A stretch of DNA of 41,155 nucleotides, from IMG/VR virus record IMGVR_UViG_3300029619_000017, one strand, 5' to 3'. This DNA comes from a virus. Below the pieces are notes generated by a model. It had not been told where the DNA came from. It saw only the letters and a list, made by a program, of their open reading frames with translations, and made no database searches. The position numbers and the translations under genes are program-made. Within the stretch, counting starts at the first letter, position 1; every line of letters begins with the position of its first letter. Shown piece by piece: positions 2,882-38,900 of the stretch.

Positions 2882-4063
2882 ATGGAAGAAGAAAAAAAGG
2901 TCATATATCGGTTTGACGTGGATTTCAGCGGTACGGCAAGTACATCTCCCGCAATAAAAATTTGCGCCACCGATGTAAATAGCAGGATGTTCATTATGAC
3001 ACCAAAATCGGGAGGAGTTGAGATTGACCTACCCGAAGACACAAACGTCCTGTTGACTCTTACCAAAACAGCGAACAAGGTGACCTCCGTCATCGGTACC
3101 GTCGTTTGCACATATGTCAACAAAAAAATTGTCGCTGATGTGCCCTCGTTCTCGATTTCAGACAGTGACACGATTCAAGGCACGGTAATGTATTACAAAA
3201 AATACACCGACAGCAAGGAATACAAGCTGCAATCCGTCCCATTTTACATCGGAGTTGTGTCGAGTAACCAAAGCCCCGGCACTATAACCGCAGCGGACGA
3301 ATTTAAAGCCCTTGCAGATATAGCGGCAATTAAGCGGGGTGCTTATTATGACATTAACACAAGTTCGGAATCTCCAACGGCCAGTGAAAACGATCTTAAA
3401 ATCGAGGTTGACAATCTCAATCCGTACATAGGAACAATCATTGATGTTATTCCCGCAAAGAAAAAGGGCGTCTCCCCTCTTAAAACAGGCAGAATGTACT
3501 TGCTCAATCAAAATGAGACGATACACGGCGTGGATTCAGGGCTGCCTATATGCGTTATTGACCCCGACACCGGAAACGCCGTAATGGGAGACAAAGAACA
3601 TTACAATCCATATGCCGTACCTATGAATTGCAAGTCTACCATGCGCCTGTTTATTCGTCAGGGATACGCAATATGGCTTAACCCTCCGTATTACTATGCC
3701 ATTGATGCAGACGAATATCTCGGTAAAAACCTTGTCGCTTATGATGACGTCGACTGGAAGTGTAAAATAATCCGTGGAAACGGTTTTGCAACGGTGCAGG
3801 GTGTACTTCGAGCGAATACGGCGATAAAGCCCGGAACCGCAGGAGAACGAACACTTATAGAAAAATTGCCGTTCAGACCTATGACGCATACGCTTGTACG
3901 GTGCACAACGAGCTTTACTTCAACATCCGTAAGTGCCGACAGCTGGGTTTGTCAGATTGACGGGTCGGACGGCTCAATTTGGGTTGAAAAAGGAGCGACA
4001 CTTACAGGAACGGACGATTTTTGCATAAACGTCACATTCCCGGTCTATTCACGAAAGGAGTAA
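2882..4063 (+). CDS. Putative receptor-binding / tail fibre protein (BppU-N-like Ig domain at the N-terminus)
   Basis: 393-aa ORF preceded by a GAGGTGA RBS. The N-terminal pattern DVNSRMFIMTPKSGGVEIDLPEDTNV resembles the baseplate upper protein N-domain. It is the last structural gene before the lysis genes. Confidence 0.45.
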   Translation: MEEEKKVIYRFDVDFSGTASTSPAIKICATDVNSRMFIMTPKSGGVEIDLPEDTNVLLTLTKTANKVTSVIGTVVCTYVNKKIVADVPSFSISDSDTIQGTVMYYKKYTDSKEYKLQSVPFYIGVVSSNQSPGTITAADEFKALADIAAIKRGAYYDINTSSESPTASENDLKIEVDNLNPYIGTIIDVIPAKKKGVSPLKTGRMYLLNQNETIHGVDSGLPICVIDPDTGNAVMGDKEHYNPYAVPMNCKSTMRLFIRQGYAIWLNPPYYYAIDADEYLGKNLVAYDDVDWKCKIIRGNGFATVQGVLRANTAIKPGTAGERTLIEKLPFRPMTHTLVRCTTSFTSTSVSADSWVCQIDGSDGSIWVEKGATLTGTDDFCINVTFPVYSRKE

Positions 4064-4068
4064 TTATA

Positions 4069-4998
4069 ATGGCAGTATATGAATTTTCAAAATCAAAGCA
4101 GGGACAAAACAAGGTAACCGAGCATTTTACTGTGTCGGAATTTGCTTGCCATGACGGCAGCGACTATGTACCTATTGACGTTGACCTTGCATTTAAGCTT
4201 GAGGACATCAGACAGCACTTCGGCAAGCCGATTACAATTACATCCGCCTATCGAACCCCGAGCTATAACAAGAAAATCGGCGGAACCTCCGATTCCTATC
4301 ATGTTAAGGGACAGGCCTTTGACATTGTAGTAAGCGGGGTTTCACCCTATGATGTGGCTCACTATGCACAGGGGCTTTGGATAAACGGTATCGGCTGTTA
4401 TTATGACAGCGGCTTTGTACACATTGACGGAAGAAAGAAGCCATATTATTGGAAAAATCAAAGCGTAACATCGGTCGGCACCTTTGATAATCTCCCCTCC
4501 TGCGTGTGCAATGTTCGGAATGTACGTCTTGCACACATGGCCGACGGTTGGAGTTTCCCTCAATACGGCCTCACATGGGACGGCAATGACGATGAATTCA
4601 GATATGTTATTAAAAATTCCGTCGTGAAAGAGTCGGCAGACTATTCAAATGTTGCAAAAATTGTTCAATACACTGTCGGAGCGGACACGGACGGCATTTT
4701 CGGAAAAAGCACTACCGAGAAGGTCAAGCAATGGCAAAAAAGTCACAGTCTTACGGTTGACGGCGTTTGGGGTGAAAGCTGTTGGCTCAAAGCTCTCGGA
4801 ATGGACAAGAAGGAAGAACCGACACCCACACCGGAAGCGCCGAAGCGACTCACCGTTGCCGACGCACTTAAAGTCTTGCAGGCGAGTGTGGAACAGGTTG
4901 AGCTTTCGGCCGATGAAATAAACAGGCTTGATTGTGACGGTGACGGAAAGCTAACGGTTACCGACGCGCTTATAATTCTTCAGGAAACAATCAAATGA
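4069..4998 (+). CDS. Endolysin: peptidase M15 (D-Ala-D-Ala carboxypeptidase-like) + PG_binding_1-like repeat + half-dockerin tail
   Basis: AAGGAG RBS, then ATG 4069. Zn-ligand motifs SYHVKGQAFD and FVHID. DGIFGKSTTEKVKQWQ...LTVDGVWG peptidoglycan-binding pattern. C-terminal DCDGDGKLTVTDALIILQ. Confidence 0.85.
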   Translation: MAVYEFSKSKQGQNKVTEHFTVSEFACHDGSDYVPIDVDLAFKLEDIRQHFGKPITITSAYRTPSYNKKIGGTSDSYHVKGQAFDIVVSGVSPYDVAHYAQGLWINGIGCYYDSGFVHIDGRKKPYYWKNQSVTSVGTFDNLPSCVCNVRNVRLAHMADGWSFPQYGLTWDGNDDEFRYVIKNSVVKESADYSNVAKIVQYTVGADTDGIFGKSTTEKVKQWQKSHSLTVDGVWGESCWLKALGMDKKEEPTPTPEAPKRLTVADALKVLQASVEQVELSADEINRLDCDGDGKLTVTDALIILQETIK

Positions 4999-5008
4999 GG
5001 TGTAAATC

Positions 5009-5335
5009 ATGCAAATAATCAGGTTAATTTTTGAAGTTTGCTCCGGTATTCTCGGCATTGCCAGCTTGATAGCCGGTCTATATGTCATTTTTAAGTGGAT
5101 AACCGATGTCAAACGAAAAGATGATAAGGCTTCGGCCGACATTGAGGAACTACGCCGACACACCGAATCGGAGTTCTTGTCAATCAAGGAAGAAAATACG
5201 CTCATTTGCTACGGCCTTTCGGCCTGCCTCGACGGTCTTATACAGCAGGGATGTAATCATACCGTACCCCTTGCAAAAGAAAAACTCGATAAACATCTCA
5301 ACCTAAAGGCGCACGAACAAAAGAAAGGAGCATAA
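5009..5335 (+). CDS. Lysis-associated membrane protein (single N-terminal TM, BhlA/UviB-like architecture), possible holin
   Basis: 108-aa ORF. Hydrophobic segment ILGIASLIAGLYVIFKWI followed by a charged helical tail. Lies between the endolysin and a recognisable holin. Confidence 0.4.
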   Translation: MQIIRLIFEVCSGILGIASLIAGLYVIFKWITDVKRKDDKASADIEELRRHTESEFLSIKEENTLICYGLSACLDGLIQQGCNHTVPLAKEKLDKHLNLKAHEQKKGA

Positions 5336-5338
5336 ATT

Positions 5339-5620
5339 ATGAAAATCAATTGGAAGGTTAGATTCAAAAATCCGCAGTGGTGGTTCTCGGTTATTCTCGC
5401 TGTGGCCGTTCCTATCGGGGCATACTATGGCATAACCGGCTCGGACATAACATCGTGGGGATTGTTCTTTTCTACCCTCAAATCTGCCGTGCTTAACCCT
5501 TATGTGGTGTTCTCGGTGCTGGCAAGCGTGTGGAACGCTGTTATCGACCCCACCACCTCCGGCATTTCCGACAGTGTTAACGCCCTTACATACAAAAAGC
5601 CGAAATGCAACGGACAGTAA
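5339..5620 (+). CDS. Holin, phage_holin_1 (LL-H/phiLC3) type
   Basis: N-terminus MKINWKVRFKNPQWW, two or three hydrophobic spans, and the DPTTSGISDS motif typical of this holin family. Confidence 0.8.
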   Translation: MKINWKVRFKNPQWWFSVILAVAVPIGAYYGITGSDITSWGLFFSTLKSAVLNPYVVFSVLASVWNAVIDPTTSGISDSVNALTYKKPKCNGQ

Positions 5621-7228: not shown

Positions 7229-7313
7229 TTTTTCTTTTATGTGTGCAATAATCGTATTGTTTTAGCAATATAATTTAGACTTTGAAAACCACTTAAACCC
7301 GCATAAACAAAAG

Positions 7314-7338
7314 AAAAGCCGCTGTTTTAGCGGCTTTT
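7314..7338 (+). terminator. Rho-independent terminator (A-tract/T-tract flanked, potentially bidirectional)
   Basis: Perfect 10-bp stem AAAAGCCGCT/AGCGGCTTTT with a 5-nt loop. Confidence 0.75.
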
Positions 7339-7342
7339 CAAA

Positions 7343-7443: not shown

Positions 7444-8505
7444 TTAATTTTTGTTTTCATGCATTTCTTCGGGGTGTAAATCTTCACTGTGCGAAGACAC
7501 CTGCGTAAAGAAATCGCTTAAGGTTTTTGAGAAAGCAAGCTCCTCTTTTGTGAAGGTCTGCTGATATACCGAGCGAAGCACATCGGGGCTGTCCCAGCCG
7601 CCGATTTTCATTGCATATCTGTCCGGGATATTCAACAATGCCATTGCCGAAGCGGTGGCGTGACGGAGGTCGTGGAACCGGCAATGCGGTATTTTATTTT
7701 TTGCAAGCACTCGGCGGAACATATCCTCAATAGCCTTTGCGGATTTTTGTACAACATAATCATTGTCCTTCGGCTGCTTTTCTATCAGTTCCTTTATGTC
7801 CGGCGGCAAGGGAATTTTTCTGTTGCCGGCTGCGGATTTCGGAGGCTTTTCGTATTGTTCTTTTCCGTAGGTCACAATAACATTGTCGATGACGATATAA
7901 TCATCGTGTACGGCAGACCATTTCAGGCCGCAGACTTCGGATATTCTCAATCCCATACGGAGCGCAAGTGTGACCGGCAGTTCAATTTCCGTGCCTTTAC
8001 AGGCCGAAAGAATTTTTAACGATACGGACAAATCGGGGGTAGAATATATCTTTTTTTGCTTTTTGGGCAATGTTACGGTAATACTCTCCCCTGTGGCGTG
8101 CTTAATTGAGGCCGTAATCAGCCCCCAAATGCTCCGAACGCTCTTGGGTGACAGTCTACCGCTCAATGCGTTAATCTCGGCTTGCAGGGCGTTCTGATTG
8201 ATATTTGAAAGCTTTTTCCCTTGAAGGTTATGAAAATAATTTCGTGCAATCTTTTCATATGTTGCAATGCTCACCGGGGAAAGAATGTTTCGGCGGCTGT
8301 CTATATAATCCGCTATTGCTTCTTTAAGGGTCAATTCGGAAGGATTATTTTTATATTTGAATATTTGGTTTTGCCAATCGATAGCGGCCTTTTCTGCCTG
8401 CTTTTTATCGGGATATGTAAAGGAGCGACGGACGGTCTTTCCGTCAATAGTTGCGCTTGCCTGAACTCTCCAGTTACCGCTGGGGAGTTTTTTCGCTTTT
8501 GCCAT
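7444..8505 (-). CDS. int: Tyrosine recombinase / phage integrase
   Basis: 353 aa. SAM-like N-domain, and a catalytic region with ...GLRISEV..., HDLRHATAS and a C-terminal ...LRSVYQ tyrosine context. Adjacent to the tRNA fragment. Confidence 0.95.
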   Translation of the reverse strand: MAKAKKLPSGNWRVQASATIDGKTVRRSFTYPDKKQAEKAAIDWQNQIFKYKNNPSELTLKEAIADYIDSRRNILSPVSIATYEKIARNYFHNLQGKKLSNINQNALQAEINALSGRLSPKSVRSIWGLITASIKHATGESITVTLPKKQKKIYSTPDLSVSLKILSACKGTEIELPVTLALRMGLRISEVCGLKWSAVHDDYIVIDNVIVTYGKEQYEKPPKSAAGNRKIPLPPDIKELIEKQPKDNDYVVQKSAKAIEDMFRRVLAKNKIPHCRFHDLRHATASAMALLNIPDRYAMKIGGWDSPDVLRSVYQQTFTKEELAFSKTLSDFFTQVSSHSEDLHPEEMHENKN

Positions 8506-8517
8506 TCTGACTGCTCC

Positions 8518-8835
8518 TCATCTGTTAAAGATTCTTAGGATTGACGAAACAAGAGAAAATATCACAGGAATAGCAATGATCGCCGCAAAAAGCACAATGT
8601 ATATAATAGATAATGTGGTAATCGGGGACATCAATACAACAATCAGCGCCCATACCCATAGTATAATACTCAAAGGGGGAAACATTTGTATTAAAAAGAG
8701 GGAAACAATATCAAAAATCAGAGATTTATCCAGAACAACAAGCGGTGCTATGCCTATAAATAAAAGCAAGATATAATATAAAACAACGCCGAATGTACCT
8801 AAAGCTGCTTGAAATTTTTCTTTTATCGCATTCAT
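8518..8835 (-). CDS. Small polytopic membrane protein (AT-rich island)
   Basis: 105 aa, almost entirely hydrophobic (3-4 predicted spans). Hand count 22/60 G+C at 8641-8700. Confidence 0.6.
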   Translation of the reverse strand: MNAIKEKFQAALGTFGVVLYYILLLFIGIAPLVVLDKSLIFDIVSLFLIQMFPPLSIILWVWALIVVLMSPITTLSIIYIVLFAAIIAIPVIFSLVSSILRIFNR

Positions 8836-8847
8836 GCAATATTCCCC

Positions 8848-10185
8848 TCATATTTTTGATATAAATTCAACAAAGGTGGGTAAAACAGTGTTTACATAAT
8901 GTTCACTCCACCTGAGTTTATATTCGAATCCATACAACTCCAGCGGTGTTGAATCATAATCATAATAATTATCTTCATCAAAAAGAATATCTCCTAACAC
9001 GCAAAATACAACTGTAATTGCGTTATCCATGTTGCAGTCTGAAATAGACCAGGAATTTTTTACATCAACTAAACCACGAATTGCTCTTCCATATAAATTA
9101 ACAAGTGAATCAAACTCGTGCCTTTTGCTTTTCGGAATAATACTATCAAGAATAAAATCAATCAAGCCTGTACTTTTTTCAAATCGATTGCCTCCGGAGC
9201 AAAAAAAACTATAATCACAAATGACATAACACGCCGAACAAATTGCAATTTTGGTTTTCAGAAAATCTGTGTCAGCATAACCTTTCATCGATATTAAGCA
9301 ACTACTTACACATTGTTCGAAAGCGTTGGCTAAAGATGTCTTTACTACTGTTTTTTGCTGTGGATGATTGATTCTATTATATTTAGCTTCTAACGAGTAA
9401 TATGATGAAACCTTTTTGCGGAACTCTTCTTTTTTCAAAGAAGAAGAAATAACATTATGAAAAAAAGAATATAATGCGCCGTTTTCCCCATTCATTATAG
9501 TTTGGCTAACAATTTGTGCCATTTTATTGTCGTTTTTGTTAATACACTCATTTGTAATTTCAGAATTGTGAGCGGATACAATTTGTTCAATTTTCTTTAT
9601 TAAAGTACGAAGATTTTGATTTTTTTCTGTAGGGTGCTTCTCTCTTGATTTGCTGATCAAAAGGACAATCTTTTCATCTGAAACATTATTATTTTCTTTA
9701 ACATCACGGAAATATATGAGAGACGTAGCAAATAATATTTCCGCATCAGACGGTTTTTCAATAAAGTGAGATTTTTTTACTATGTAATAAATTACTGCAA
9801 TTTCTTCTGCCATATGTAAATATTCTAAAGAACATATTGACAAATCCTTTTCTCGTTGTTTCTTTTTGATTGCCGTTGCATTACTTTTGCCCTCCGTTCC
9901 TTTTTGCGAGAGATCTTGAGTGTGGTCAGTTTTGTAAAAATAGGCTCTTATCCTATTTCGATTGAGCCACATCACAACGGCGATCGGCACAAATACAAGC
10001 AAGAAAGTTCCAAACACATAGTTTTCTTTGGTAAAAGACATTGCACAACCTACCAACCAAAGAATCGGGCCAAATCCAAGAAGTATAAAAGACAGCGTCG
10101 GGTGTGCTTCTATGTCCTTGTCAAATTGACTTTTTGCTGTTTTAACATCTTTTTTGTGATTTTTAGGATGTCCATTAACCTGCAA
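8848..10185 (-). CDS. Unknown 445-aa protein with two N-terminal TM helices and a large helical cytoplasmic domain (AT-rich island); candidate exclusion/defence protein
   Basis: Long ORF with a 12-nt gap to the next gene. Hydrophobic spans LSFILLGFGPILWLVGCAM and FGTFLLVFVPIAVVMWL. No motif I recognise. Hand count 21/60 G+C at 9001-9060. Confidence 0.6.
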   Translation of the reverse strand: MQVNGHPKNHKKDVKTAKSQFDKDIEAHPTLSFILLGFGPILWLVGCAMSFTKENYVFGTFLLVFVPIAVVMWLNRNRIRAYFYKTDHTQDLSQKGTEGKSNATAIKKKQREKDLSICSLEYLHMAEEIAVIYYIVKKSHFIEKPSDAEILFATSLIYFRDVKENNNVSDEKIVLLISKSREKHPTEKNQNLRTLIKKIEQIVSAHNSEITNECINKNDNKMAQIVSQTIMNGENGALYSFFHNVISSSLKKEEFRKKVSSYYSLEAKYNRINHPQQKTVVKTSLANAFEQCVSSCLISMKGYADTDFLKTKIAICSACYVICDYSFFCSGGNRFEKSTGLIDFILDSIIPKSKRHEFDSLVNLYGRAIRGLVDVKNSWSISDCNMDNAITVVFCVLGDILFDEDNYYDYDSTPLELYGFEYKLRWSEHYVNTVLPTFVEFISKI

Positions 10186-10203
10186 AATACACTCACCTCA
10201 TTT

Positions 10204-10602
10204 TTATTTATAAACAATCCAGCCTTTGAAGCCGATGAGAATATCAACGACAAAAAAGCCGAGAAGAATAAGCACGAGTGCGCCGACGGTTATCATATAA
10301 ATCCGCTTGTCACGGATGACCGCCTTTATACGCTCGTCCTTGTCCTTTAAACGCTGTTCGTACAATTCTATGACCGATTCGGACGTATTTTGTTCTTCGG
10401 GCTTTATCCCCTCCCCTATTTCGTCAAGACTGCCGCCCAAAGCGTTGACTATGCTCGTTACGGTACTGAGTCTCGGGTCGGGTGTTTTACCCCCGATAAT
10501 ACTTCTTACCGTCTCGGAAGGCAGGCCACAACGGTCGGCAATGTCCTTTGTGGACATCTGTCGGCTCTTTTTAAGCCCTTGAAGATATTCGCACAAAAGC
10601 AA
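10204..10602 (-). CDS. XRE-family HTH protein with a C-terminal transmembrane anchor
   Basis: N-terminal ...MSTKDIADRCGLPSETVRSIIGGKT... HTH_3 pattern. C-terminal ITVGALVLILLGFFVVDILIGF span. TTG start after a GGGGAG RBS. Confidence 0.7.
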   Translation of the reverse strand: MLLCEYLQGLKKSRQMSTKDIADRCGLPSETVRSIIGGKTPDPRLSTVTSIVNALGGSLDEIGEGIKPEEQNTSESVIELYEQRLKDKDERIKAVIRDKRIYMITVGALVLILLGFFVVDILIGFKGWIVYK

Positions 10603-10878
10603 AATTACTACTCCCCTTCAAACCGCTTGTCACGGCGGTTTTTGTTATATTTTAACAGAATAATCGGGACGAAAGCAAACAATAAAAACAGAAGGCTTAC
10701 AGGACAAACAAAAATCTGCACAATGGTCAACAGGGTGAAAATGTGTTATGGTTTACACAATCTACCAAGGGTAGAAAAAAGGAGAGTGTAACCGTAATGG
10801 AAAAGAAAATGTCAAAAAAGGAATTTATGGGACGAATGGACAAGCTGTCGAGGCTTAAAAGGGACGAGTACAGAAAAA

Positions 10879-11475
10879 TCAAAGACCTTTTGAAAGACTG
10901 CGAATCAGGTCGGCAATGCTTTTCTGCTGATCCTCCGGGAGGGAGGAAAAAATCCTAAACAGCTCCTCATTTTCGGACAGCTCCCGTTCTTCGGGGGCTG
11001 TCTGCTCTTCTTCGGTGAAATATTCGATAGGTACGCCGAAAAGGTTTGCGATTTTTTGAATGTTAGTGTCGCTCGGAACAGCACCTTTTTTCCACCCGGT
11101 GGCACTTGCACGAGTAACACCTATTTTTTCAGCAACGGTACTCGGAGATAAATCTTTGTCTTCATTCAGGGCACATAAATCTAATAGTTTCGTATAAAAA
11201 TCAACAACTTTGAATTCTTTCTTCGGCGTTTCGTTGTCTATTTTTTTTTCTTCTTTCGGAAAGTAATCGACACTTACCCCGAAATAATCGGCCAGCTTTT
11301 GAAGGTTTATATCGGTAGGTATATATCCCCTCTTCCAACGGCTTACAGATGTCTTGGAAATACCCACATCAAGAGCGGCCTTTGACGGAGTTATCTTCTT
11401 GTCTCTGCACAGTTGCAAATAAGTGTTGTAGAAGTTAGACAAAAAATCACCTCTCAAATTGTTCAGGATTGCCAA
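10879..11475 (-). CDS. Tandem double-HTH XRE-family repressor
   Basis: Two HTH_3 units (...ITPSKAALDVGISKTSVSRWKRGYIPTDINLQKLADYFGVSVDYF and ...LSPSTVAEKIGVTRASATGWKKGAVPSDTNIQKIANLFGVPIEYF). Divergent from a consensus promoter. Confidence 0.8.
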   Translation of the reverse strand: MAILNNLRGDFLSNFYNTYLQLCRDKKITPSKAALDVGISKTSVSRWKRGYIPTDINLQKLADYFGVSVDYFPKEEKKIDNETPKKEFKVVDFYTKLLDLCALNEDKDLSPSTVAEKIGVTRASATGWKKGAVPSDTNIQKIANLFGVPIEYFTEEEQTAPEERELSENEELFRIFSSLPEDQQKSIADLIRSLSKGL

Positions 11476-11501: not shown

Positions 11502-11530
11502 TTGACACAGTTGCCTGTTTTTATTATTAT
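11502..11530 (+). promoter_or_regulatory. Sigma-70-type promoter TTGACA-17-TATTAT
   Basis: Exact -35 consensus, 17-nt spacer and a near-consensus -10, about 100 nt upstream of ATG 11628. Confidence 0.7.
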
Positions 11531-11554
11531 GTACTTACGAAGTAACCTTTGTGA

Positions 11555-11584
11555 CTTAACTTAACTTAACTAAACTTAACTAAA
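11555..11584. repeat. Pentanucleotide tandem repeat (CTTAA/CTAAA) x6 in the 5' leader
   Basis: cttaa cttaa cttaa ctaaa cttaa ctaaa read directly. Related TAACTAAAA words occur at 11488 and 11598. Confidence 0.85.
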
Positions 11585-11934: not shown

Positions 11935-12180
11935 ATGAAGGACAATATCCGAAATGCCTGTTTTGATACTATTGATGACTTCTTTGCATTGTGTCTTAAA
12001 TCGTGCGGAGCGGACATAACCGAAAGAATCGGTAAGGCAATTACAGAAGTTCTTCCAAAGTATGAGCCGGGGACGGAAAAGCACCGGGCAACACTTGAAG
12101 AAATCGACCTTTTATCAAACGAGCTTGTGAAGTATGCGGAAGCATTACAGAAGCTGCATAAAAAGGGAAAAAAGAGATAA
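11935..12180 (+). CDS. Hypothetical early protein
   Basis: 81-aa ORF with a GGGAGGTGAGG RBS. Helical and lysine-rich at the C-terminus. Confidence 0.55.
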   Translation: MKDNIRNACFDTIDDFFALCLKSCGADITERIGKAITEVLPKYEPGTEKHRATLEEIDLLSNELVKYAEALQKLHKKGKKR

Positions 12181-12432
12181 CAGAAGGGCGATTACCGAAA
12201 CGGTTCTTGTAAAGATACGGTCGAAACGGTTTTGCCGCTCCTCATAAAGAGCCGACCTTCCTCTTTCGATGATATAAGGTTCACAGTAATAATCACCCGG
12301 TTTGTCAACCTGTGTCATCTCAATGTAACCGAGAGAGTAAAGGTAATCCAAGTCCTCGTTGTTTTTATCTATCCGAATGATTTTTCGGTTTGAAATTGAT
12401 TTTAGGAGTTTCAATTGAGTGTTGCTCAACAC
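12145..12432 (-). CDS. Small protein with wHTH-like N-terminus and a C-terminal TM anchor
   Basis: 95 aa. C-terminal VSVIALLLSLFSLFMQLL. Its 3' end overlaps the convergent 11935..12180 gene by 36 nt. Confidence 0.5.
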   Translation of the reverse strand: MLSNTQLKLLKSISNRKIIRIDKNNEDLDYLYSLGYIEMTQVDKPGDYYCEPYIIERGRSALYEERQNRFDRIFTRTVSVIALLLSLFSLFMQLL

Positions 12433-18285: not shown

Positions 18286-18552
18286 ATGAGTAAATACATA
18301 AACGCAGAAACGCTGATAGAAATGCTCAACGCAAAAGCGGATATGGCGTTGGGAACGCCGAAAGCGGTGTTTGGTAATGTCATAAAAATGATTGACCTTT
18401 TACCTCCTGCCGATGTGGTGACTGTTGTCCGTTGTAAAGATTGCAAGCACCTTATGTTTTCGGATATGTATGGTGAATGTTCACAAGCACATATGGGAAT
18501 TGTCAGACCTGACGATTTTTGCAGTTACGGAGAAAGGAAAGACGAGGAATGA
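18286..18552 (+). CDS. Cysteine-containing hypothetical protein
   Basis: 88 aa. VRCKDCKH...C...FCSYGER pattern. Confidence 0.5.
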   Translation: MSKYINAETLIEMLNAKADMALGTPKAVFGNVIKMIDLLPPADVVTVVRCKDCKHLMFSDMYGECSQAHMGIVRPDDFCSYGERKDEE

Positions 18553-18968
18553 CCGATAAGAAATTTACTGATGAGGAAATTATACAGGCATTAGAGTGCC
18601 ACATAAACGCAGAGGATTGTGTGAGTTGTGAAATGTTCGGTTGGTGTGATGAAATTATTCTTACCAAATTGGTTCTTGACCTTATCAACCGTCAAAAGGC
18701 TGAGATTGAGAAACTGAAAAAGGAAAACGAGATACTTTCCCGTAATGCTGACAATGCATTTCAAGAGGGGTTAAATGAGTGTCGGGAGCTTTTTGAACCC
18801 GAAATCAAATCCGAAGCACTCAAAGAGTTTGCGGAGAGAATAAAAATGTCTATTAAGGCAAATGTTGTTGAAACTCTGTGTAACGATGTAAAAGGTGTTT
18901 ATAACGCCGAGTACGTTATTGATGATATTGACAATCTCTTAAAAGAAATGGTAGGTGAGGAAAAATAA
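18549..18968 (+). CDS. Hypothetical protein (Cys cluster + coiled coil)
   Basis: ATGA-coupled start at 18549. CHINAEDCVSCEMFGWC, then heptad-like sequence. Confidence 0.5.
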   Translation: MTDKKFTDEEIIQALECHINAEDCVSCEMFGWCDEIILTKLVLDLINRQKAEIEKLKKENEILSRNADNAFQEGLNECRELFEPEIKSEALKEFAERIKMSIKANVVETLCNDVKGVYNAEYVIDDIDNLLKEMVGEEK

Positions 18969-19051
18969 AATATTTAAAATATTGGCAAAGAAACGGAACA
19001 AGGCGACCGTTTCCGTCTTTAGGAGAAGCAAGCGAAAAATGGGGCCAAAGG

Positions 19052-19426
19052 GTGTTTTATCCTCAACCAAACTATGTCAAGAAAAAACATTGTAGGTGGT
19101 GTGGTAAAGAATTAAGTGGTAGAAGAACTTCTTTTTGCTCGGACGAGTGCAGTAGATTATTCAATAATATGACTGTATGGAACAGAGGGCGTGACAGTTA
19201 TTCTTTGCGAATACTTTACCGTGATAACTTTACTTGTCAAGACTGCGGAGAGTTTAACGCCTTTAAAAATGAACACGGCATTTACATACCTATAGACAAC
19301 GGAAACCTTAATGTTCATCATATTCAATTTGTATGTAACGGCGGCGGAGACGAACCTGAAAACCTTGTTACATTGTGCAAAAATTGTCATAGAAAAAGAC
19401 ACAAAATAAAGGAAGCTGATAAATAA
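19052..19426 (+). CDS. HNH endonuclease
   Basis: CxxC pairs and ...NVHHIQFVCNGGGDEPENLVTLCKNCHRKRH. Confidence 0.9.
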   Translation: MFYPQPNYVKKKHCRWCGKELSGRRTSFCSDECSRLFNNMTVWNRGRDSYSLRILYRDNFTCQDCGEFNAFKNEHGIYIPIDNGNLNVHHIQFVCNGGGDEPENLVTLCKNCHRKRHKIKEADK

Positions 19427-19659
19427 TGAAATGCTATTCAACCAAAAAGGCACGGGAAAGAGCCATTGAGGATATGGCGCAGGTTATGTATGTGGCGGTT
19501 GCAAATGTGCTGACCGACAAGCTCCATTTCGGAAAGGTGAAAGTACAGCAGACCTTACGGCAGATTGAAAAGGTGTTTGATATGCTGGCCGAAGGGCGGA
19601 TGTCCCTTGACGACTGCAAAGAGGTACTTTGTCAGGAATACGGGGTGACGATCAGATGA
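19426..19659 (+). CDS. Hypothetical protein
   Basis: 77-aa ORF, translationally coupled. Confidence 0.45.
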   Translation: MKCYSTKKARERAIEDMAQVMYVAVANVLTDKLHFGKVKVQQTLRQIEKVFDMLAEGRMSLDDCKEVLCQEYGVTIR

Positions 19660-31993: not shown

Positions 31994-32947
31994 ATGGCAA
32001 TCAGTTTTAATCCAATCAGTTATAACTTTTCGGAGTCTGACGAGGCAAAAAAGAAAAAGCAGCTTGCGGATCAGCAGTACGAAAGGCTTTTAAATTACGG
32101 CTCATACAACAGCAAGTACAACAATGACCTTGCGGCGGCGGTTGACGCCATAAAAAACAGGGAAAAATTTTCGTATAACGCCGCTGAGGACAATCTTTAT
32201 AACATCTATAAGGAGCAGGCCACCCGAGCGGGAAAACAGGCTATGGAGGACACTCAGGGCAAGGCGGCGGCTCTTACGGGAGGTTACGGCTCTTCCTACG
32301 GTCAGACGGCGGGACAACAGGTCTATAACAACTATATGAACGACCTGAACAGCAAGATACCCGAGCTTGAACAGCTGGCATATCAGAGGTATCAGCAAGA
32401 GGGGCAGGATTTATACAATCTTGCAAGCCTTTACCAAAACCTTGACAACACCGACTATACACGGTGGGCAACAGGCTTTGACCAGCAGGGCACGCTGGCC
32501 AATATGGCGCAGAGTATGTATGACACCCTTTACAACCGTGAAAAGAACAATTACGACAGCCACATTCAGAACGACTGGAACAATGCTAATGCCAAACTGA
32601 CCGCCGACGAGTATAACGACAAAATGGCCTATCAACGAGAGCGTGACAGCGTTTCGGACGCACAGTGGCGGGAGCAGATGAACGAAACCAAGAAAAACAA
32701 CGACCAGTCGGCGGCGATATCGAGCCTTAAGGCACAGCTTGAGGCCAAGGACAGCCAGTGGGTAGATAAAGAGTATTCCACCGTTTCAAACGGTGTCAAG
32801 TCAATTTATGAGAGATATAAAGGTGACACAAATAAATTGAGGAATGCCTTGATAAAATTTATGGAGGGTTTGCCTGAAAGCTATTCGCAATATCTTGCTT
32901 CGGCAGTAGGCGAATACGGAATTACGCTTGATAATATTTTGAGGTGA
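31994..32947 (+). CDS. Q/N/Y-rich structural (internal virion?) protein
   Basis: 317 aa. Strongly biased towards Q, N, Y, D and A with no hydrophobic core pattern. Lies immediately upstream of the giant ORF. Confidence 0.4.
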   Translation: MAISFNPISYNFSESDEAKKKKQLADQQYERLLNYGSYNSKYNNDLAAAVDAIKNREKFSYNAAEDNLYNIYKEQATRAGKQAMEDTQGKAAALTGGYGSSYGQTAGQQVYNNYMNDLNSKIPELEQLAYQRYQQEGQDLYNLASLYQNLDNTDYTRWATGFDQQGTLANMAQSMYDTLYNREKNNYDSHIQNDWNNANAKLTADEYNDKMAYQRERDSVSDAQWREQMNETKKNNDQSAAISSLKAQLEAKDSQWVDKEYSTVSNGVKSIYERYKGDTNKLRNALIKFMEGLPESYSQYLASAVGEYGITLDNILR

Positions 32948-32951
32948 AAAT

Positions 32952-35900
32952 ATGAACGCATTAGACGCATATAAGAAGAAAAAAGAGCAAAGCAGCGGAA
33001 GTGCTTACACCGTACTTATGGCAGATAGAATCAAATCGGGCAAGGACACCCTTTTTGACGATATTATGTCCTTCGGCAAAAGCTCAATGGGAGATAATGC
33101 GTACAGCAACTATTACAAGGGCGGTTTTAAAACTCCCGACGATTACACGGCGGCAAGCGATTTCCTGACAAGCTCCGTTGATACGGTGAACGGATATAAG
33201 GAACGGCTTGAAAAGAACCGTGCGGCATATGAGCGGGTGTACGGTGCAGAGGCGGTCAAAAAGCAGGAAGAAAGCCTGAATCAAATGCTGTCTCTATATA
33301 ACAGTCAAGACCTTTGGGACAGCATTAACAGCCGCAGAGATGTCTTTGCACAGTACAAGGATGCCGATGAGTATAATTCCCTTAACGATATGACAGCCGG
33401 ACAGGGAAAAACACTCGACGATAAGATTTCAGCGGCACAGGAAGAGTATAACAATGCTCTTTCCCTGCTGTCTAAGGCAAAAAAAGGAAAATACATCAGT
33501 CGGGTTAAACTGCCCGATTCGGAAAATCAGAATATTGATATAGAATCGGCAAAGGATAAAGAAAGCTTTGCAAAAGCCGAGCTTGAACGGCTTAAACAGT
33601 TGAAGCTTGATTGGGAAAAGGCAAGAGCGCAGTACGATGACGAGGGCACTCCTTTTTCGGAAAAGTATAACGGATATGACTATAAGGGAGTCGGGCTTGC
33701 GATAAATGCGCTTGCTTCAAAGGAATATGCGCTGTCGGACAGCCAAAAAAGAGAGCTTGAATGGCTTAGAGACAATCAAATAAGCTATGCAAACGACGAA
33801 GAGCTGAAAAATGCCCTTGCGCTTGCAAAGGGTCAGGCCGAGAATGCAAGGGAAAAAACAAACCAAATGCATTTTGCGGCAACATATGATATCAATAATC
33901 CCGATCCTTTCACCGAAGAACAAAAAAATCTTGCGGAAGAAGAGGCTGCAAGGTACCAAGCCAAGGCGGCCACGCTTGAAAACTACTACAACGAGCGCAA
34001 GGAAAATGAACGACTTGCGGCAATCGAAAAAGAAGTTCACGACAAATATATGCCTCTTCTTGATGATGAGGAATTTGCGAAACACACAACTGTCGAAAGT
34101 GACAAAAAGTCAAGTGTGTACTTGGGGTCAGACCGCACGACAGATGTTTATAATAATATTGCAAATGTGTACAATGCGAAAATGACTGATGACGAACGAA
34201 AAGTGTTTTATGGATTGTACAATACCGATAAAGAAAAAGCAACAAAGTACCTTGATGAGCTGGAACCGATTTTGAATAAAAGGACAACTGACGCTTGGGT
34301 GAAAGTTGCTCAAGAAGGGGCAGAAGAAAACCCAGTCCTTAACAGTGTTTTGGCAATAGCGACCAACCTTGCAAGCGGTATAGGCTCCGCCGACGCTCTT
34401 CTAAGAAAAGCCACGGGAAAGGAGATCGACACAAATTCCCCAGCAAATATTATGGCACACTATTCGAGCACGGCAAGAGGCACGACCTCACAAATGCTTA
34501 TCGATTACCTCAGAAAAAATCCCGACAGCTTTTGGAATACCAAAAGTTCGCTCTTCGGACGGGATGAGGACGGCAACGCCCGGGCATTCGGCCTTTTTGC
34601 AAAGGAAACGACCGAAAGTATGCTTGACAATCTTGCGAGAATTGCAGTTTCAAAGGGAATCGGGACAGGACTCAGTGAAAAGGCTCTGGAAACGATTGAT
34701 TTTGCCCTTATGGGAAGTCAGGTAGCCACACAAACCATTATAGACGCAAAGAAAAAAGGTCTTTCGGACGGTAAGGCTCTTGCAATGGGCTTTACTTCGG
34801 GCGCAATCGAGGCAATAACCGAAGTATGGAGCGTTGAAAGAATTCTCGGAAACCCGAAAAGCTTTATTACCACTCTCGGCAAATCTCTTGTTGCCGAAGG
34901 GAGCGAGGAAATCGCTTCTAACATTCTCAACCGTGCGGTTGATGTGCTTGTAAATGCCGACCAGTCGGAAGTGATGCAGGAATATTACGGCTATATTAAC
35001 GAGGGGTTATCTCCTTCGGAGGCTTCGGCCAAGACGGTTTCGGGCATTCTCGGAGACGATCTTTCGGCGGGACTGGGCGGCGCACTTTCGGGCGTTATGA
35101 TGAGCAGAGCAAACTACGGCATTGCCAAGAGCTATGCAAAGGCCGAGAATGTCAAAAACGGAGTCAGACAAATAAAGGTCGGCCGAGAATTAAAATCGGC
35201 AGACAGCGTTATAACCTCCCTTGACGAGATTATCGCCGCAAATCCCGACAATAAGGAAGTAGTGACGGCAAGGGAAGCCATTGAAAAGGGCGAAAAGGTA
35301 TCGGCAAGGCGGCTTGGAAAGCTGCTTACGGACGAATTTTCGGCACAGTACGAAAAGGCCGTGACGGATGTGGACAGCACGGAGGTCAAGGCAAAGTTGG
35401 AGCAAAAGGGCGTAAAGAACGCCGATGCGCTTTCAAAGACCATTGCAAAGGCCTTTAACGAGGGATATGATTCGGTCAAGGGGCAGGAGCGAACCGAGCT
35501 TACTCACAACTCGGAGGCAATGGAGGTATACAAAGAATACCAAACCGAGAGAGAAAATGCGGCCGAAAACAGCGGCAGACTTTTCAGGGTGTATTCTGAT
35601 GTTGACCGTTCCGAGCTTGTTTCCTATGCGAAGGAGCAGGGTAAAAATAACAGCTTTATCCGGGAGGCCTCCGACCTTGCGGAGGGAAAAACCGACCTTG
35701 ATTCTCTTGATAATCTGCAAGAGGCGGTATTTTCCGAGATTACCGATCAGTTTTTGTCGGCCGATACGGTAGAAGAGGCACGGACGGTTTATAAGGAGCT
35801 TGCAAAAGGAGCCGGAAAGGGCATAAAATCACTGCTTGACATGGCTCTTGACAACCGCACCGAAGAAATCACGGCCGCAAACAGCTATGACACGGTGGAA

Positions 35901-38900
35901 AGCGTTTCCTTCAACGACACAAAAGACGGTGTCGAGGCGGTTGTTTCCACCGCAAAGGGAAAGAACCTCTCCCCTCTTTCGGCGAATATCGGATATGAGG
36001 CAGCCGCAGTCATAAACAATGCCGCGGACCGACCGACCGCCGTGAGAAATCTCTATGCAAACGAATATCTCGAAAGCAACCGCCACCTTGTTGCCTCGAC
36101 CTATAACGCTTCTTTTGAAAAATATTATAAGGCCGGAGAAAAGGGGCAGAGCTTTTCCGACATTAAACGCACATCGAGAGACATAAAACCGTCGAGTGCC
36201 CGCAGAATATACGAAGCAGGCAGAGCACAGGCGGGAGCCGAACGAAACAGACAGGAGCAGTATAAACAGTCGGACGAGTACAAAAACCGCTCAAAGGAGC
36301 GCACAGAGCAAAATGCGGCCGCAAAAAAGCAGGGCGGCGTTGTGCGGGAATATTCGGCAAGCAAAAAAGTGAACAGGAAGCTGAGGGGACAGCTCCGACT
36401 GCTCGATGTTTGGGCAAAGGAAAAGGGCGTTGTTATCCGTGTAGTTTCGAGCCTTGCCGAGAAATATAATCTTGAAGGAAAGATTATAAACGGGCAGTAT
36501 GAGGGCGGAAACACGATTGTCATTGCCCTTGACGGTAAAAATGCGCTGACCTCCACGGCGGGGCACGAGATGTACCATATGATTGAAAATCTTTCGCCGG
36601 AGTATGCGCAGAGCTTCAGGGAATTTGTCATAGACCACCTTAAGGCGGCGGGAAAATATGATTCGGTTTTTGCGGACTATGAGAAAAGATACGGAAAGAC
36701 CTATGCAAGGGACGAGGACTTTAAGGCCAAAATCGACGAGGAAATCGTTGCCGACCACTGCTTTGAAGCACTGACCAACAAGGAGCAGTGGGACAGCTTT
36801 GCGGCCGAAAACAAAACGCTTTCCGACAAGATAATGGAATTTATCAAGGAATTTGTGGCAATGATAAACCGTGCCTTTGACAAATATTTCGTTCACGACA
36901 ACGCCGAAATCCGAAACGAGGTTTTGGGCGAGGTTGATTATATGAACGAAATTGCCCGGCGGCTTTCGGAGGGCGTGGACGAGGCGGTGGAGAATTACCG
37001 TTTCGGTGCCGGCACGGAGAGTGAGACAAGGTTTTCGATTGGATATACTTTGGATAACAAGGCTGTTGCAATTATTGAAGATGATATTCTTGCGGGTGTT
37101 CCAAAATCCGAATGGATAAAAACCGTCAAGGATACTATTTCCGGAAAGTTCTCAAGCGGCATTCCCGTAAGCGGTCGACTTATCAAGGTAAATCGTATTA
37201 CAAAAAACGAGTTTACGAACTCAAAAGATACAAAGAACTTGAAAAACAATAAGACTGTTTACAAAGACAAGCTTAAGTCCGCAAACAATCTTGACGATAT
37301 TGTCTTGGCTTCCACCAATTATATTAACGAGGATTTAAAGCACACTCGAAAGGACAATTTCAAGGAGTTTGCTCGTGGAGATGTTTCAATCCGAATCGGA
37401 AACAATGATTATTCGGCAAAGGTTATTGTGGGTTTCACATCGGGCGGAAACATGGTCTTATATGATATTATCAATTTTACCCCTACAAAATTTGTATTAA
37501 ATGAAAAAAAGAAGGCACGCAATACCGCTATGCATCAAAATGATGCAGGAAGCGATAGAACACGCGTACCTTCTGATACCATTATACGCACAAACGATAA
37601 AAAAAGTCAAGGGAAAATTTCCTCTTTTTCGATTTCGGACGAGGAATATATGTCTGCGGCGGAAAGCGGTGACACAAGACTTGCCCAAAGAATGGTAAAC
37701 GAGGCGGCGGGTGAAGCGGGGTATAATTCTCCCCTGCTCTATCACGGCACACAAAATTTCGGCTTTACCGAATTTGACCTTAACAAAATGGGTGACGGTC
37801 GGAGCATTTTCCTCACCTCGAGCAGGGAAATAGCCTCCACCTATTCGGGCGTCGGCGGAAAAAGGAATATCGAAGCTCCCAAAAGCTCGGCAAATATGAC
37901 GATTGACGAGGTGGCAAAGGCTCTTAACGAGGTTTCGAAAAGAGACAACGGCGACCTTGAGCTTTCATCCTATCGGGTCATGACCAAAAAAGACCTTACC
38001 ACTCTTGAAAGAAACGTCGACAAGGGTATCGAGGACTTGTATGACACGGTACAGAAGAAAATAGACCTTTACGGTGAAAAGCTTGCGAGGGACTTTAACG
38101 ATAAGGATGAAAAGACCTTAAATCAGCTTGTCGACCTTTCCGACCTTTTGGAGCATTATTCTTATGACAAGCTGTCCACTCCCCTTTATATGCTGCTCCA
38201 CCACTCCGATGCTTTTACCACGGAAAAGTTTGAGCTTTCCGACCTTGAGGCCGATGTGCGGCTTATGCAGCTGCTTAAAAAGAACGACCTTTCAAATGGC
38301 GTTGTCGTTGCCGAAGATAAGGACAGATATTACATTCGTGCTCTTGACCGGGAAAAGGCGGCGAAACTGCTTGACGAGCAAAACGCACAGGGAAACTATA
38401 CCCTCTTTGCAAAGCTGGGCAATTATCTCGAAATCGACGGCAAGGGAAAGAACTGGAACAAGATATTTGCCGTGCTTGAGCCGCAGGAGAAAACCACCTT
38501 TTCGGCGAAATACAACACCGACACAAATACTCTTGTGCTCAGCGACGAAAAAGGTACCTTTGCCGAAATAAAGAGAGATACTCTTGACGAAGCCACACCC
38601 GCCATGGCAAGAGCCATAACATACAGATACGGCAAATTCCTTGCGGCGACAGTGCTTTCACAGGCGAGAGATCAGCTTAAAAACAGTGCGACGGCCGAAG
38701 TGCAGGTCAGAGCCGTGGGAGACAGAAACACAAGGGAGATTGCCGAGTTTGCCGACGAGCAGGGCTATGACAGCGTTGTTTTCCGTGACCTTATGGACAA
38801 CGGCGGACAAAACAGCAAGGTCGGCAGCTCAACCACGGCCGACATTTATATCATCTTCGACCCAAACAATGTCAAATCTGCCGACCCGATAACCTATGAC

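Follow-up and report, generated by a model that had tools for sequence, protein, structure and literature searches.

An exchangeable, AT-rich pair of membrane-protein genes between a membrane-anchored regulator and the integrase of a gut Clostridia phage, with a possible anti-phage role

Gene content and organization of the cassette

The IMG/VR virus record IMGVR_UViG_3300029619_000017 is a stretch of 41,155 nucleotides (nt), here called the window, in which two genes for membrane proteins occupy the minus strand at 8518-10185, between the gene of a small regulator and that of the integrase. The first of them (8848-10185, minus strand) encodes a membrane-anchored protein of 445 amino acids (aa) and starts with TTG, with the ribosome-binding site (RBS) GAGGTGA 8 nt upstream. 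The second (8518-8835, minus strand), known only from this phage group, encodes a 105-aa protein that is polytopic by its hydropathy. This pair, referred to below as the cassette, has conserved flanks on both sides. The upstream flank (10204-10602, minus strand) encodes a 132-aa XRE-type helix-turn-helix (HTH) protein with a single hydrophobic C-terminal membrane helix at about aa 102-125 (XRE-TM), in which the HTH lies at aa 5-62 and is matched by several HTH families, all below the Pfam thresholds. The downstream flank is the tyrosine integrase gene int (7444-8505, minus strand; PF00589, E = 5.8e-15), the last gene of the string. A first-pass annotation of the window had proposed the pair as candidate exclusion or defence cargo, co-oriented between the membrane-anchored XRE gene and int with gaps of 12-18 nt, and its coordinates proved exact.

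On the minus strand, the gene order is 198-aa double-HTH regulator, XRE-TM, 445-aa gene, 105-aa gene, and int. The gaps from XRE-TM through the two cassette genes to int measure 18, 12, and 12 nt, and a GAGG-type RBS precedes each of these four genes. The stop codons of both the 445-aa and the 105-aa genes lie inside an ATGAGG motif, which is at the same time the RBS of the next gene. A terminator scan revealed no strong terminator-like hairpin on the minus strand between 10602 and 7444, and detected two weak candidates at the 3' end of the XRE-TM gene (10235-10219 and 10284-10271) as well as a hairpin with a T-run after int (7313-7339, minus strand), which is the likely transcript end. Owing to the tight gaps and to a terminator found only after int, the four genes look like a single transcription unit, and the earlier placement of the pair on the lysogeny strand is upheld by this tightly spaced string that ends at the terminator after int.

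Base composition and selection

The cassette is the most AT-rich 1.67 kb of the genome. The G+C content (GC) of 8518-10185 is 0.334, compared with a mean of 0.455 (standard deviation 0.034) for segments of equal length; a value this low is reached by only 0.15% of all 1,668-nt segments, and the lowest segment of the window begins at 8551. The GC at third codon positions (GC3) of the 445-aa gene is 0.278, the lowest of 39 genes, and that of the 105-aa gene is 0.321, compared with a mean of 0.504 (standard deviation 0.067) for the other genes. The windowed GC and codon-usage analysis proposed in the first-pass annotation therefore locates the lowest GC and the lowest GC3 of the genome in the cassette, and the four hand counts on which that annotation had based its compositional shift (21, 22, 31, and 33 of 60) were all exactly right. 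The resulting picture of an AT-rich foreign island applies to the cassette as a whole, but not in the same way to the stretch that encodes the N-terminal membrane hairpin, a module with a GC of 0.38 that is shared with an alternative cassette.

Three comparisons of the large gene give a ratio of nonsynonymous to synonymous substitution rates (dN/dS) of about 0.30; the ratio of the small gene is 0.13, and those of XRE-TM and int are 0.06-0.14. Judging from these ratios, both cassette genes are real and under purifying selection, and the large gene evolves faster than its neighbours. In the comparison with a more distant phage (locus L005), the large gene has diverged far less at synonymous sites (dS 0.59) than the adjacent int (dS 2.8), which indicates that the large gene has moved between diverged phages.

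An exchangeable slot in the putative lysogeny operon

Contigs with relatives of the cassette proteins come from the same group of phages of about 40 kb. The junctions in sister phages were mapped by blastn, and slot states were collected with XRE-TM as the anchor in IMG/VR, together with the loci found earlier. At base level, the sequence shared with these phages runs through the RBS AAATGAGGTGAGTGTAT to the start codon and resumes at the int RBS GAGGAGCRGTCAGAATG. In coordinates, the upstream junction (10186-10203, minus strand) is the shared AAATGAGGTGAGTGTAT that ends at the start codon of the 445-aa gene, with homology to phages with an alternative cassette stopping at 10187, and the downstream junction (8506-8519, minus strand) is the int RBS GAGGAGCRGTCAGA-ATG common to all relatives, with homology resuming at 8519.

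Five states of the slot were distinguished. In the first, present in the window and in loci L001-L004 and L012/L030, a gene for a 445- or 418-aa protein is followed by that for the 105-aa protein. In the second (L031), the small gene is alone, the large gene having been lost cleanly between two ATGAGG boxes in a phage whose int is 99.7% identical to that of the window. The third state (L032) is a frameshifted remnant of the small gene. The fourth (L007-L011 and L013/L033) is an unrelated pair that encodes a membrane protein of 304-355 aa with a terminal zinc ribbon and a 98-aa zinc-ribbon membrane protein; this alternative pair was also detected away from any XRE-TM or int gene, in a metagenome-assembled genome (MAG). 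The fifth state, in the more distant phage L005/L006, is a 624-aa version of the large protein encoded directly before int, without the small gene. Across the first four of these states, near-identical phages occur: XRE-TM is 94-98% identical among all relatives, whichever cassette follows it, and int is up to 100% identical. Given five slot states in related phages, the cassette is, by this comparison, dispensable, exchangeable, and made of separable genes, and the slot is a recombination hot spot in what looks like one lysogeny operon of regulator, cassette, and integrase, carried by a temperate phage of the gut.

The view of the first-pass annotation that the genes are horizontally acquired cargo is thus borne out by the gene-precise junctions, the alternative occupants, the AT-richness, and the dS of 0.59 versus 2.8. 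As to its question whether the two genes travel together, they do so in the phages of the first slot state, but not in those with the large gene alone (L005/L006) or the small gene alone (L031), so that the pair is looser than had been assumed.

Two further observations were made at these loci. In L007 (5928-6000; compare L011 from 3646), the first ~45 nt of the gene for the 355-aa alternative protein, which starts MAKNQD…, survive upstream of the new start of the 304-aa gene, a remnant that, from its sequence, is the scar of an earlier exchange at the same junction. In L005 (465-1714), a DUF3800 gene and a divergent gene for an ImmA-like M78 peptidase lie directly upstream, in place of XRE-TM.

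Anatomy of the two proteins

In the 445-aa protein, hydropathy and charge place two hydrophobic helices at aa 30-49 and 55-76, with lysine and arginine residues on both sides. Because of these flanking charges, the two helices are predicted to form a membrane hairpin, with both ends of the protein, including the large C-terminal part, in the cytoplasm; the first-pass description of two N-terminal transmembrane helices followed by a large cytoplasmic part agrees with both measures. In the 105-aa protein, a continuous hydrophobic stretch spans aa 10-103, and lysine and arginine lie at both ends; four helices, with both ends of the protein in the cytoplasm, are probable.

A word-indexed search of 5.8 billion proteins returned only three full-length relatives of the 445-aa protein, namely P0001 (93% identical), P0002 (91%, with 27 aa of the linker lost, corresponding to a deletion of aa ~90-117), and P0003 (71%, with a longer N-terminus). 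Five more proteins (P0004-P0008) share only aa ~18-85, which make up the two-helix hairpin module (9931-10134, minus strand; GC 0.38), at 52-62% aa identity, and these are the large proteins of the alternative cassette. P0003 combines the N-terminal region of the alternative protein with the hairpin and the cytoplasmic part of the 445-aa protein. From these arrangements, the hairpin behaves as a joint for domain shuffling. For the 105-aa protein, the protein search returned two close relatives and nothing else.

A profile search with aa 110-445 against 1.84 billion cluster representatives identified 41 proteins at E < 1e-3 and split the region into two helical sub-domains, A (aa 118-275; 9361-9834, minus strand) and B (aa 281-445; 8851-9345, minus strand). 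One of the 41, the eukaryotic saposin repeat P0035, was discounted as a probably spurious match. Sub-domain A matched three stand-alone proteins of ~180 aa (P0018, P0031, and P0049), and sub-domain B matched stand-alone proteins of ~170 aa as well as the ends of longer ones. An origin of A and B by internal duplication was considered and rejected, as hhalign of A against B showed no relationship and the stacking of A-type proteins on B by MAFFT was misleading.

Among 18 sequences of B that are 19-30% identical, five residues are invariant (D324, R334, R370, D399, and Y410) and two nearly so (F358 and W379). The AlphaFold2 model of B, built on the alignment of these sequences, is a bundle of six or seven helices (predicted local distance difference test score, pLDDT, 93.6; predicted template modelling score, pTM, 0.90). 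A Foldseek search with this model against the PDB and BFVD returned nothing at E < 1, the best E-values being 1.5 and 1.3, respectively, and among the 50 matches listed for each library, the highest query-normalised TM-score was 0.32 in the PDB and 0.50 in BFVD. For the full 445 aa, with an alignment of 4 sequences, AlphaFold2 gave a pLDDT of 36, too low for a fold to be read from the model, either for A or for the protein as a whole.

Searches for known families

In Pfam-A (hmmscan, E <= 1), the 445-aa protein had three chance-level matches only, with DUF4747 not among them, and the 105-aa protein had no match; scans of each member of the A and B families against Pfam were also empty. Profile searches of the PDB with the whole cytoplasmic part, with A, and with B yielded chance-level matches only, including I-CreI (E = 0.004), with no stretch passing on its own. 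The first-pass annotation had recognised neither a motif nor a named defence system in the pair, and the same was found in Pfam, PADLOC, PHROGs, NCBIfam, and the PDB, none of which gave a credible match. Homology to a housekeeping membrane protein, which that annotation had named as evidence to the contrary of a cargo role, was not seen in the Pfam, NCBIfam, or PDB searches or in the Foldseek search with B. Taken together, A and B appear to be undescribed protein families on the strength of these searches.

A single scan of Joint Genome Institute (JGI) metagenomes added two further loci only, and IMG/VR scans found nothing with the motif pattern CADDYDNAP and nothing with an A-type protein.

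Genomic company of A and B elsewhere

The stand-alone B proteins P0054 and P0044 (loci L015 and L017) are encoded between a 200-aa double-HTH CI-like repressor, paired with a divergent gene for a small Cro-like HTH protein, and an integrase. Since the integrases of these prophages are only 30-33% identical to that of the window and the repressors are barely alignable, the repressor-integrase placement recurs in distant prophages. The gene of the stand-alone A protein P0018 begins 15 nt after that of a 151-aa CI-like HTH protein, and the gene of P0011, the best remote match to B, follows in a chromosomal islet (L024), at 24 nt, a gene read by eye as HTH-like, on which no family search was made. 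In most loci, the B genes and their partners lie 6-16 GC points below their flanks.

Small membrane proteins are also found beside B. The genes of a distant B subfamily (P0051, P0053, and P0055) are followed at four loci with different flanks by one for a polytopic protein of 97-100 aa, frameshifted at one of them, and in L017 B is followed by a ~175-aa protein with two membrane helices. At least eight family members carry B in fusion with between one and three membrane helices, and elsewhere its fusion partners are zinc ribbons, CpXC, or BspA-type leucine-rich repeats. Most members of the A and B families are soluble cytoplasmic proteins without a membrane segment. The family is confined to gut Clostridia-type metagenome sequences, and neighbours at its chromosomal B loci include rubrerythrin and ferritin, as well as Trk, LuxS, and SpoIIE. 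The remote A and B family members and their partners had no match in PADLOC.

Five remote B proteins (P0019, P0020, P0021, P0037, and P0045) share the segment …DDYGYS..NPI.TS…Y…L.T..GEK…W.R.GS…, which has no Pfam match and may, from its sequence, be a further undescribed domain.

Other features of the lysogeny region and the phage genome

Upstream of XRE-TM, the lysogeny region is mosaic as well. The gene of the 198-aa double-HTH regulator (10879-11475, minus strand) has only its 3' part, from a break in homology at 11040 onward, in common with relatives, where a gene for a 107-aa single-HTH protein takes its place. In the gap between this regulator gene and XRE-TM, a hairpin with a T-run (10620-10641) reads as a terminator on the plus strand only, antisense to the lysogeny genes, and a strong divergent promoter pair is predicted at 11502-11555. 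A 95-aa open reading frame (ORF; 12145-12432, minus strand), directly after a gene for a 107-aa XRE protein, has a hydrophobic tail end (…VSVIALLLSLFSLFMQLL) and no Pfam match, and would encode the second apparently tail-anchored protein of the lysogeny region.

The first and last 99 nt of the window are identical (1-99 and 41057-41155), which indicates that the assembly, of 41,056 bp, is circular or has terminal redundancy. The genome encodes a large terminase, a P22-like portal, a capsid protein, an M15 endolysin, and a holin, the last two located at 4021-5620, away from the cassette. No tRNA was found in the window, and a search of the whole window against Rfam gave no match. Across the assembly junction, a giant ORF of ~3,640 codons extends on the plus strand (32943-41155, then 100-2830); it has weak matches to ART-PolyVal, LPD3, and MuF_C, its relatives are annotated with 3,375-3,515 aa, and its sequence suggests a 'polyvalent' virion or ejected protein. 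A second AT-rich islet (18500-19500, plus strand; GC 0.37-0.39) contains a gene for an HNH endonuclease (19052-19426; PF01844, E = 9e-10) and an ORF of 149 aa without a family match. The closest GenBank phage records are unannotated human faecal contigs with portal proteins less than 50% identical, and one related gene was found in an Eubacteriales MAG from the Hadza gut.

Comparison with known systems

In phages of Gram-positive bacteria, the interval between int and the repressor is an established site of exclusion genes, such as Sie2009 and orf2/orf3 of TP901-1; their products associate with the membrane, the genes differ from one related phage to another, and one case is a pair that works in tandem (PMC7693887). 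The cassette has the same position in the lysogeny module, between repressor and int. However, Sie2009 is a small protein with one hydrophobic N-terminus, whereas the cassette encodes a 445-aa protein with a two-domain cytoplasmic part and a very hydrophobic 105-aa protein, and the search of PHROGs revealed no sequence relationship.

In RexAB of lambda and in gp30/gp31 of the mycobacteriophage Sbash (gp44/gp43 of the Gordonia phage CarolAnn), two neighbouring genes expressed by the prophage combine a larger protein with a cytoplasmic sensing part and a small membrane protein of about four helices; the lambda and CarolAnn pairs are co-transcribed with the repressor and accessory to the phage, and the large components of the RexA type share DUF4747 (PMC6426596). 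The gene string of the cassette (regulator, 445 aa, 105 aa, int) resembles this layout, and the hydropathy of its small protein is compatible with four helices. Unlike in those pairs, the large protein of the cassette lacks DUF4747 and is itself membrane-anchored, and the two genes are found apart in relatives. The first-pass annotation had regarded the pairing of a large membrane-anchored protein with a small polytopic one as unlike known systems; this does not hold for the layout, which resembles that of RexAB and Sbash gp30/gp31, but it does for the protein families, which appear to be without precedent.

Abortive infection is caused by AbiP of Lactococcus and by PdpSau of Staphylococcus aureus prophages, in which a membrane anchor at the N-terminus is followed by an effector or sensor domain in the cytoplasm; the gene of PdpSau is accessory to the prophage and alternates with other cargo, and its product affects the membrane potential during infection (PMC10127798). 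Anchor and cytoplasmic domain follow each other in the 445-aa protein likewise, but its anchor is a hairpin of two helices and its domains are all-helical, without a match to a known fold, whereas AbiP and PdpSau have one helix and an OB-fold-like nucleic-acid-binding domain; moreover, PdpSau is located in the lysis module and the cassette beside int. The phages P2 and P4 have conserved flanks around a slot of interchangeable, unrelated cassettes, and these slots are rich in anti-phage systems (PMC9122126). Here too, unrelated cassettes alternate between conserved XRE-TM and int genes, with at least four states of the slot, but in another phage lineage and host phylum, and no occupant of the slot is a recognised defence system.

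In terms of membership, the cassette belongs neither to RexAB, as its proteins have no DUF4747 and no Pfam match, nor to the Sie2009-type families or any PADLOC system, as far as sequence can assign it. The part that appears novel is the protein families, and accessory cargo in a prophage lysogeny module is of a known kind.

Interpretation and alternatives

The position of the cassette between regulator and int and the swapping dynamics of the slot are the grounds on which an anti-phage role is inferred. By analogy with the systems above, the cassette may be an accessory module of exclusion or abortive infection that is expressed by the prophage and acts at the inner membrane face, a tentative reading that is the most likely of those considered and to which we assign slightly less than an even chance. 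It would be expressed in lysogens and protect the lysogen against other phages. The hairpin would hold the 445-aa protein at the cytoplasmic face of the membrane, where the A-B part could serve as a sensor or interaction module, and the output would be interference at the membrane level, either because the 105-aa protein permeabilises or depolarises it in the manner of Rex, or because genome entry is blocked. A Rex-like mode would be favoured over an entry block, because A and B lie in the cytoplasm and most of their family members are soluble.

Several results weigh against this proposal. In PADLOC-DB 2.0, the best match of the 445-aa protein was BrxB at E = 0.028 and 12 bits, and the 105-aa protein had none; in PHROGs, the 445-aa protein had no match below E = 0.05 and the 105-aa protein none; and NCBIfam scans with single sequences of both proteins returned nothing credible. 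The occurrence of the large gene without the small one, and of the small one without the large, weakens the idea of a strict sensor-plus-effector pair. In Smith-Waterman comparisons with shuffled sequences, neither the ~100-aa partners of the distant B subfamily nor the alternative 98-aa protein showed significant similarity to the 105-aa protein (z = 1.9, 1.0, and 1.4); the membrane partners of different B subfamilies are therefore not detectably homologous (z = 1.9), and their pairing with B could be coincidence, because membrane proteins are common neighbours. The recurrent pairing of B with small membrane proteins is an analogy at best. In addition, the family is rare, so that the context statistics rest on ~10 independent loci, and some of the B loci look chromosomal rather than phage-derived. 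The same rarity is seen in the absence of any match in GenBank phages (50,697 records) and PLSDB plasmids, searched by tblastn and megablast with the window region, the 445-aa protein, a B protein, an A protein, and the alternative large protein.

An entry block of the Sie type, in which the membrane proteins, alone or together, stop genome ejection or translocation with neither cell death nor a sensor-effector link, is a different form of protection that we consider unlikely. It would suit the regulator-int interval as a classic site of Sie2009-type genes (PMC7693887), the membrane nature of both cassette proteins and of both proteins of the alternative cassette, and the ability of each gene to stand alone, which exclusion determinants that act independently would be expected to show. 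The 445-aa protein is nevertheless cytoplasmic in almost all of its mass, most members of the A and B families are soluble, unlike known Sie proteins, and the PHROGs search disclosed no homology to any Sie family.

The cassette could also be cargo for host fitness unrelated to phages, for instance a trait of membrane stress tolerance or colonisation that is parked at a permissive site. The ordinary chromosomal surroundings of several B loci, the confinement of the family to gut Clostridia-type sequences, and the lack of a defence signature in PADLOC are compatible with such a role, to which we nonetheless give only a small chance in view of the repeated placement of B genes inside the repressor-integrase interval of unrelated prophages and of the rapid swapping and loss among sister phages, which is the pattern of anti-phage hot spots (PMC9122126).

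A comparably small chance goes to an accessory function in lysogeny, by which an A-B protein beside the membrane-tethered XRE regulator would sense the state of the cell or envelope and modulate the regulator, induction, or integration. Consistent with this, A and B genes repeatedly lie 15-25 nt downstream of XRE- or CI-type genes (including, in L024, the one HTH-like by eye), and the hairpin is kept across otherwise unrelated cassettes that follow XRE-TM, which would fit a contact between helices. However, the existence of near-identical phages that lack the large protein or the entire cassette (L031 and L032), and of others whose cassette contains neither A nor B, indicates that the cassette is not core to the switch; P0003 has the hairpin without an XRE-TM neighbour, and both the foreign, AT-rich composition of the cassette and its movement between diverged phages suit cargo better than a core regulator.

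A toxin-antitoxin or addiction module, in which a toxic A-B protein would be kept in check by the XRE protein or the small membrane protein, or the roles would be reversed, with the prophage stabilised as a result, is very improbable since the large and small genes each occur alone and neither can be the obligate antidote to the other: the HTH gene tightly upstream of A and B genes recalls type II modules with XRE antitoxins (PMC2701414) and the genes are small, AT-rich, and mobile, but XRE-TM is conserved (94-98%) whatever follows it, without the obligate co-occurrence of HTH gene and toxin (P0003 again has no XRE-TM neighbour), and the upstream HTH protein in L015 and L017 is the prophage's own CI-like repressor with its divergent Cro-like gene.

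Implications

The anti-phage proposal can be extended from the window to the family. A and B might represent a new fold-level family of membrane-acting sensors in prophages and genomic islands of gut Clostridia, which with small polytopic partners would make up an undescribed class of abortive-infection or exclusion systems, and the XRE-TM/int interval might be a defence hot spot like those of P2 and P4, but in Gram-positive gut phages; this wider claim is possible, though on balance doubtful.

Prophage hot spots are a productive source of new anti-phage systems, and, to our knowledge, those mapped come almost entirely from Proteobacteria, Actinobacteria, and a few lactic acid bacteria or staphylococci. 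The slot described here is a cleanly delimited prophage hot spot in an uncultured phage lineage of gut Clostridia, and provides a near-isogenic set of phages with the pair, with the small gene only, with an empty slot, and with an alternative pair. Should the cassette prove protective, both a new membrane-associated system and a new domain family would become available for further searches; otherwise, the locus would still be a well-documented case of gene-precise module exchange at shared ribosome-binding-site sequences.

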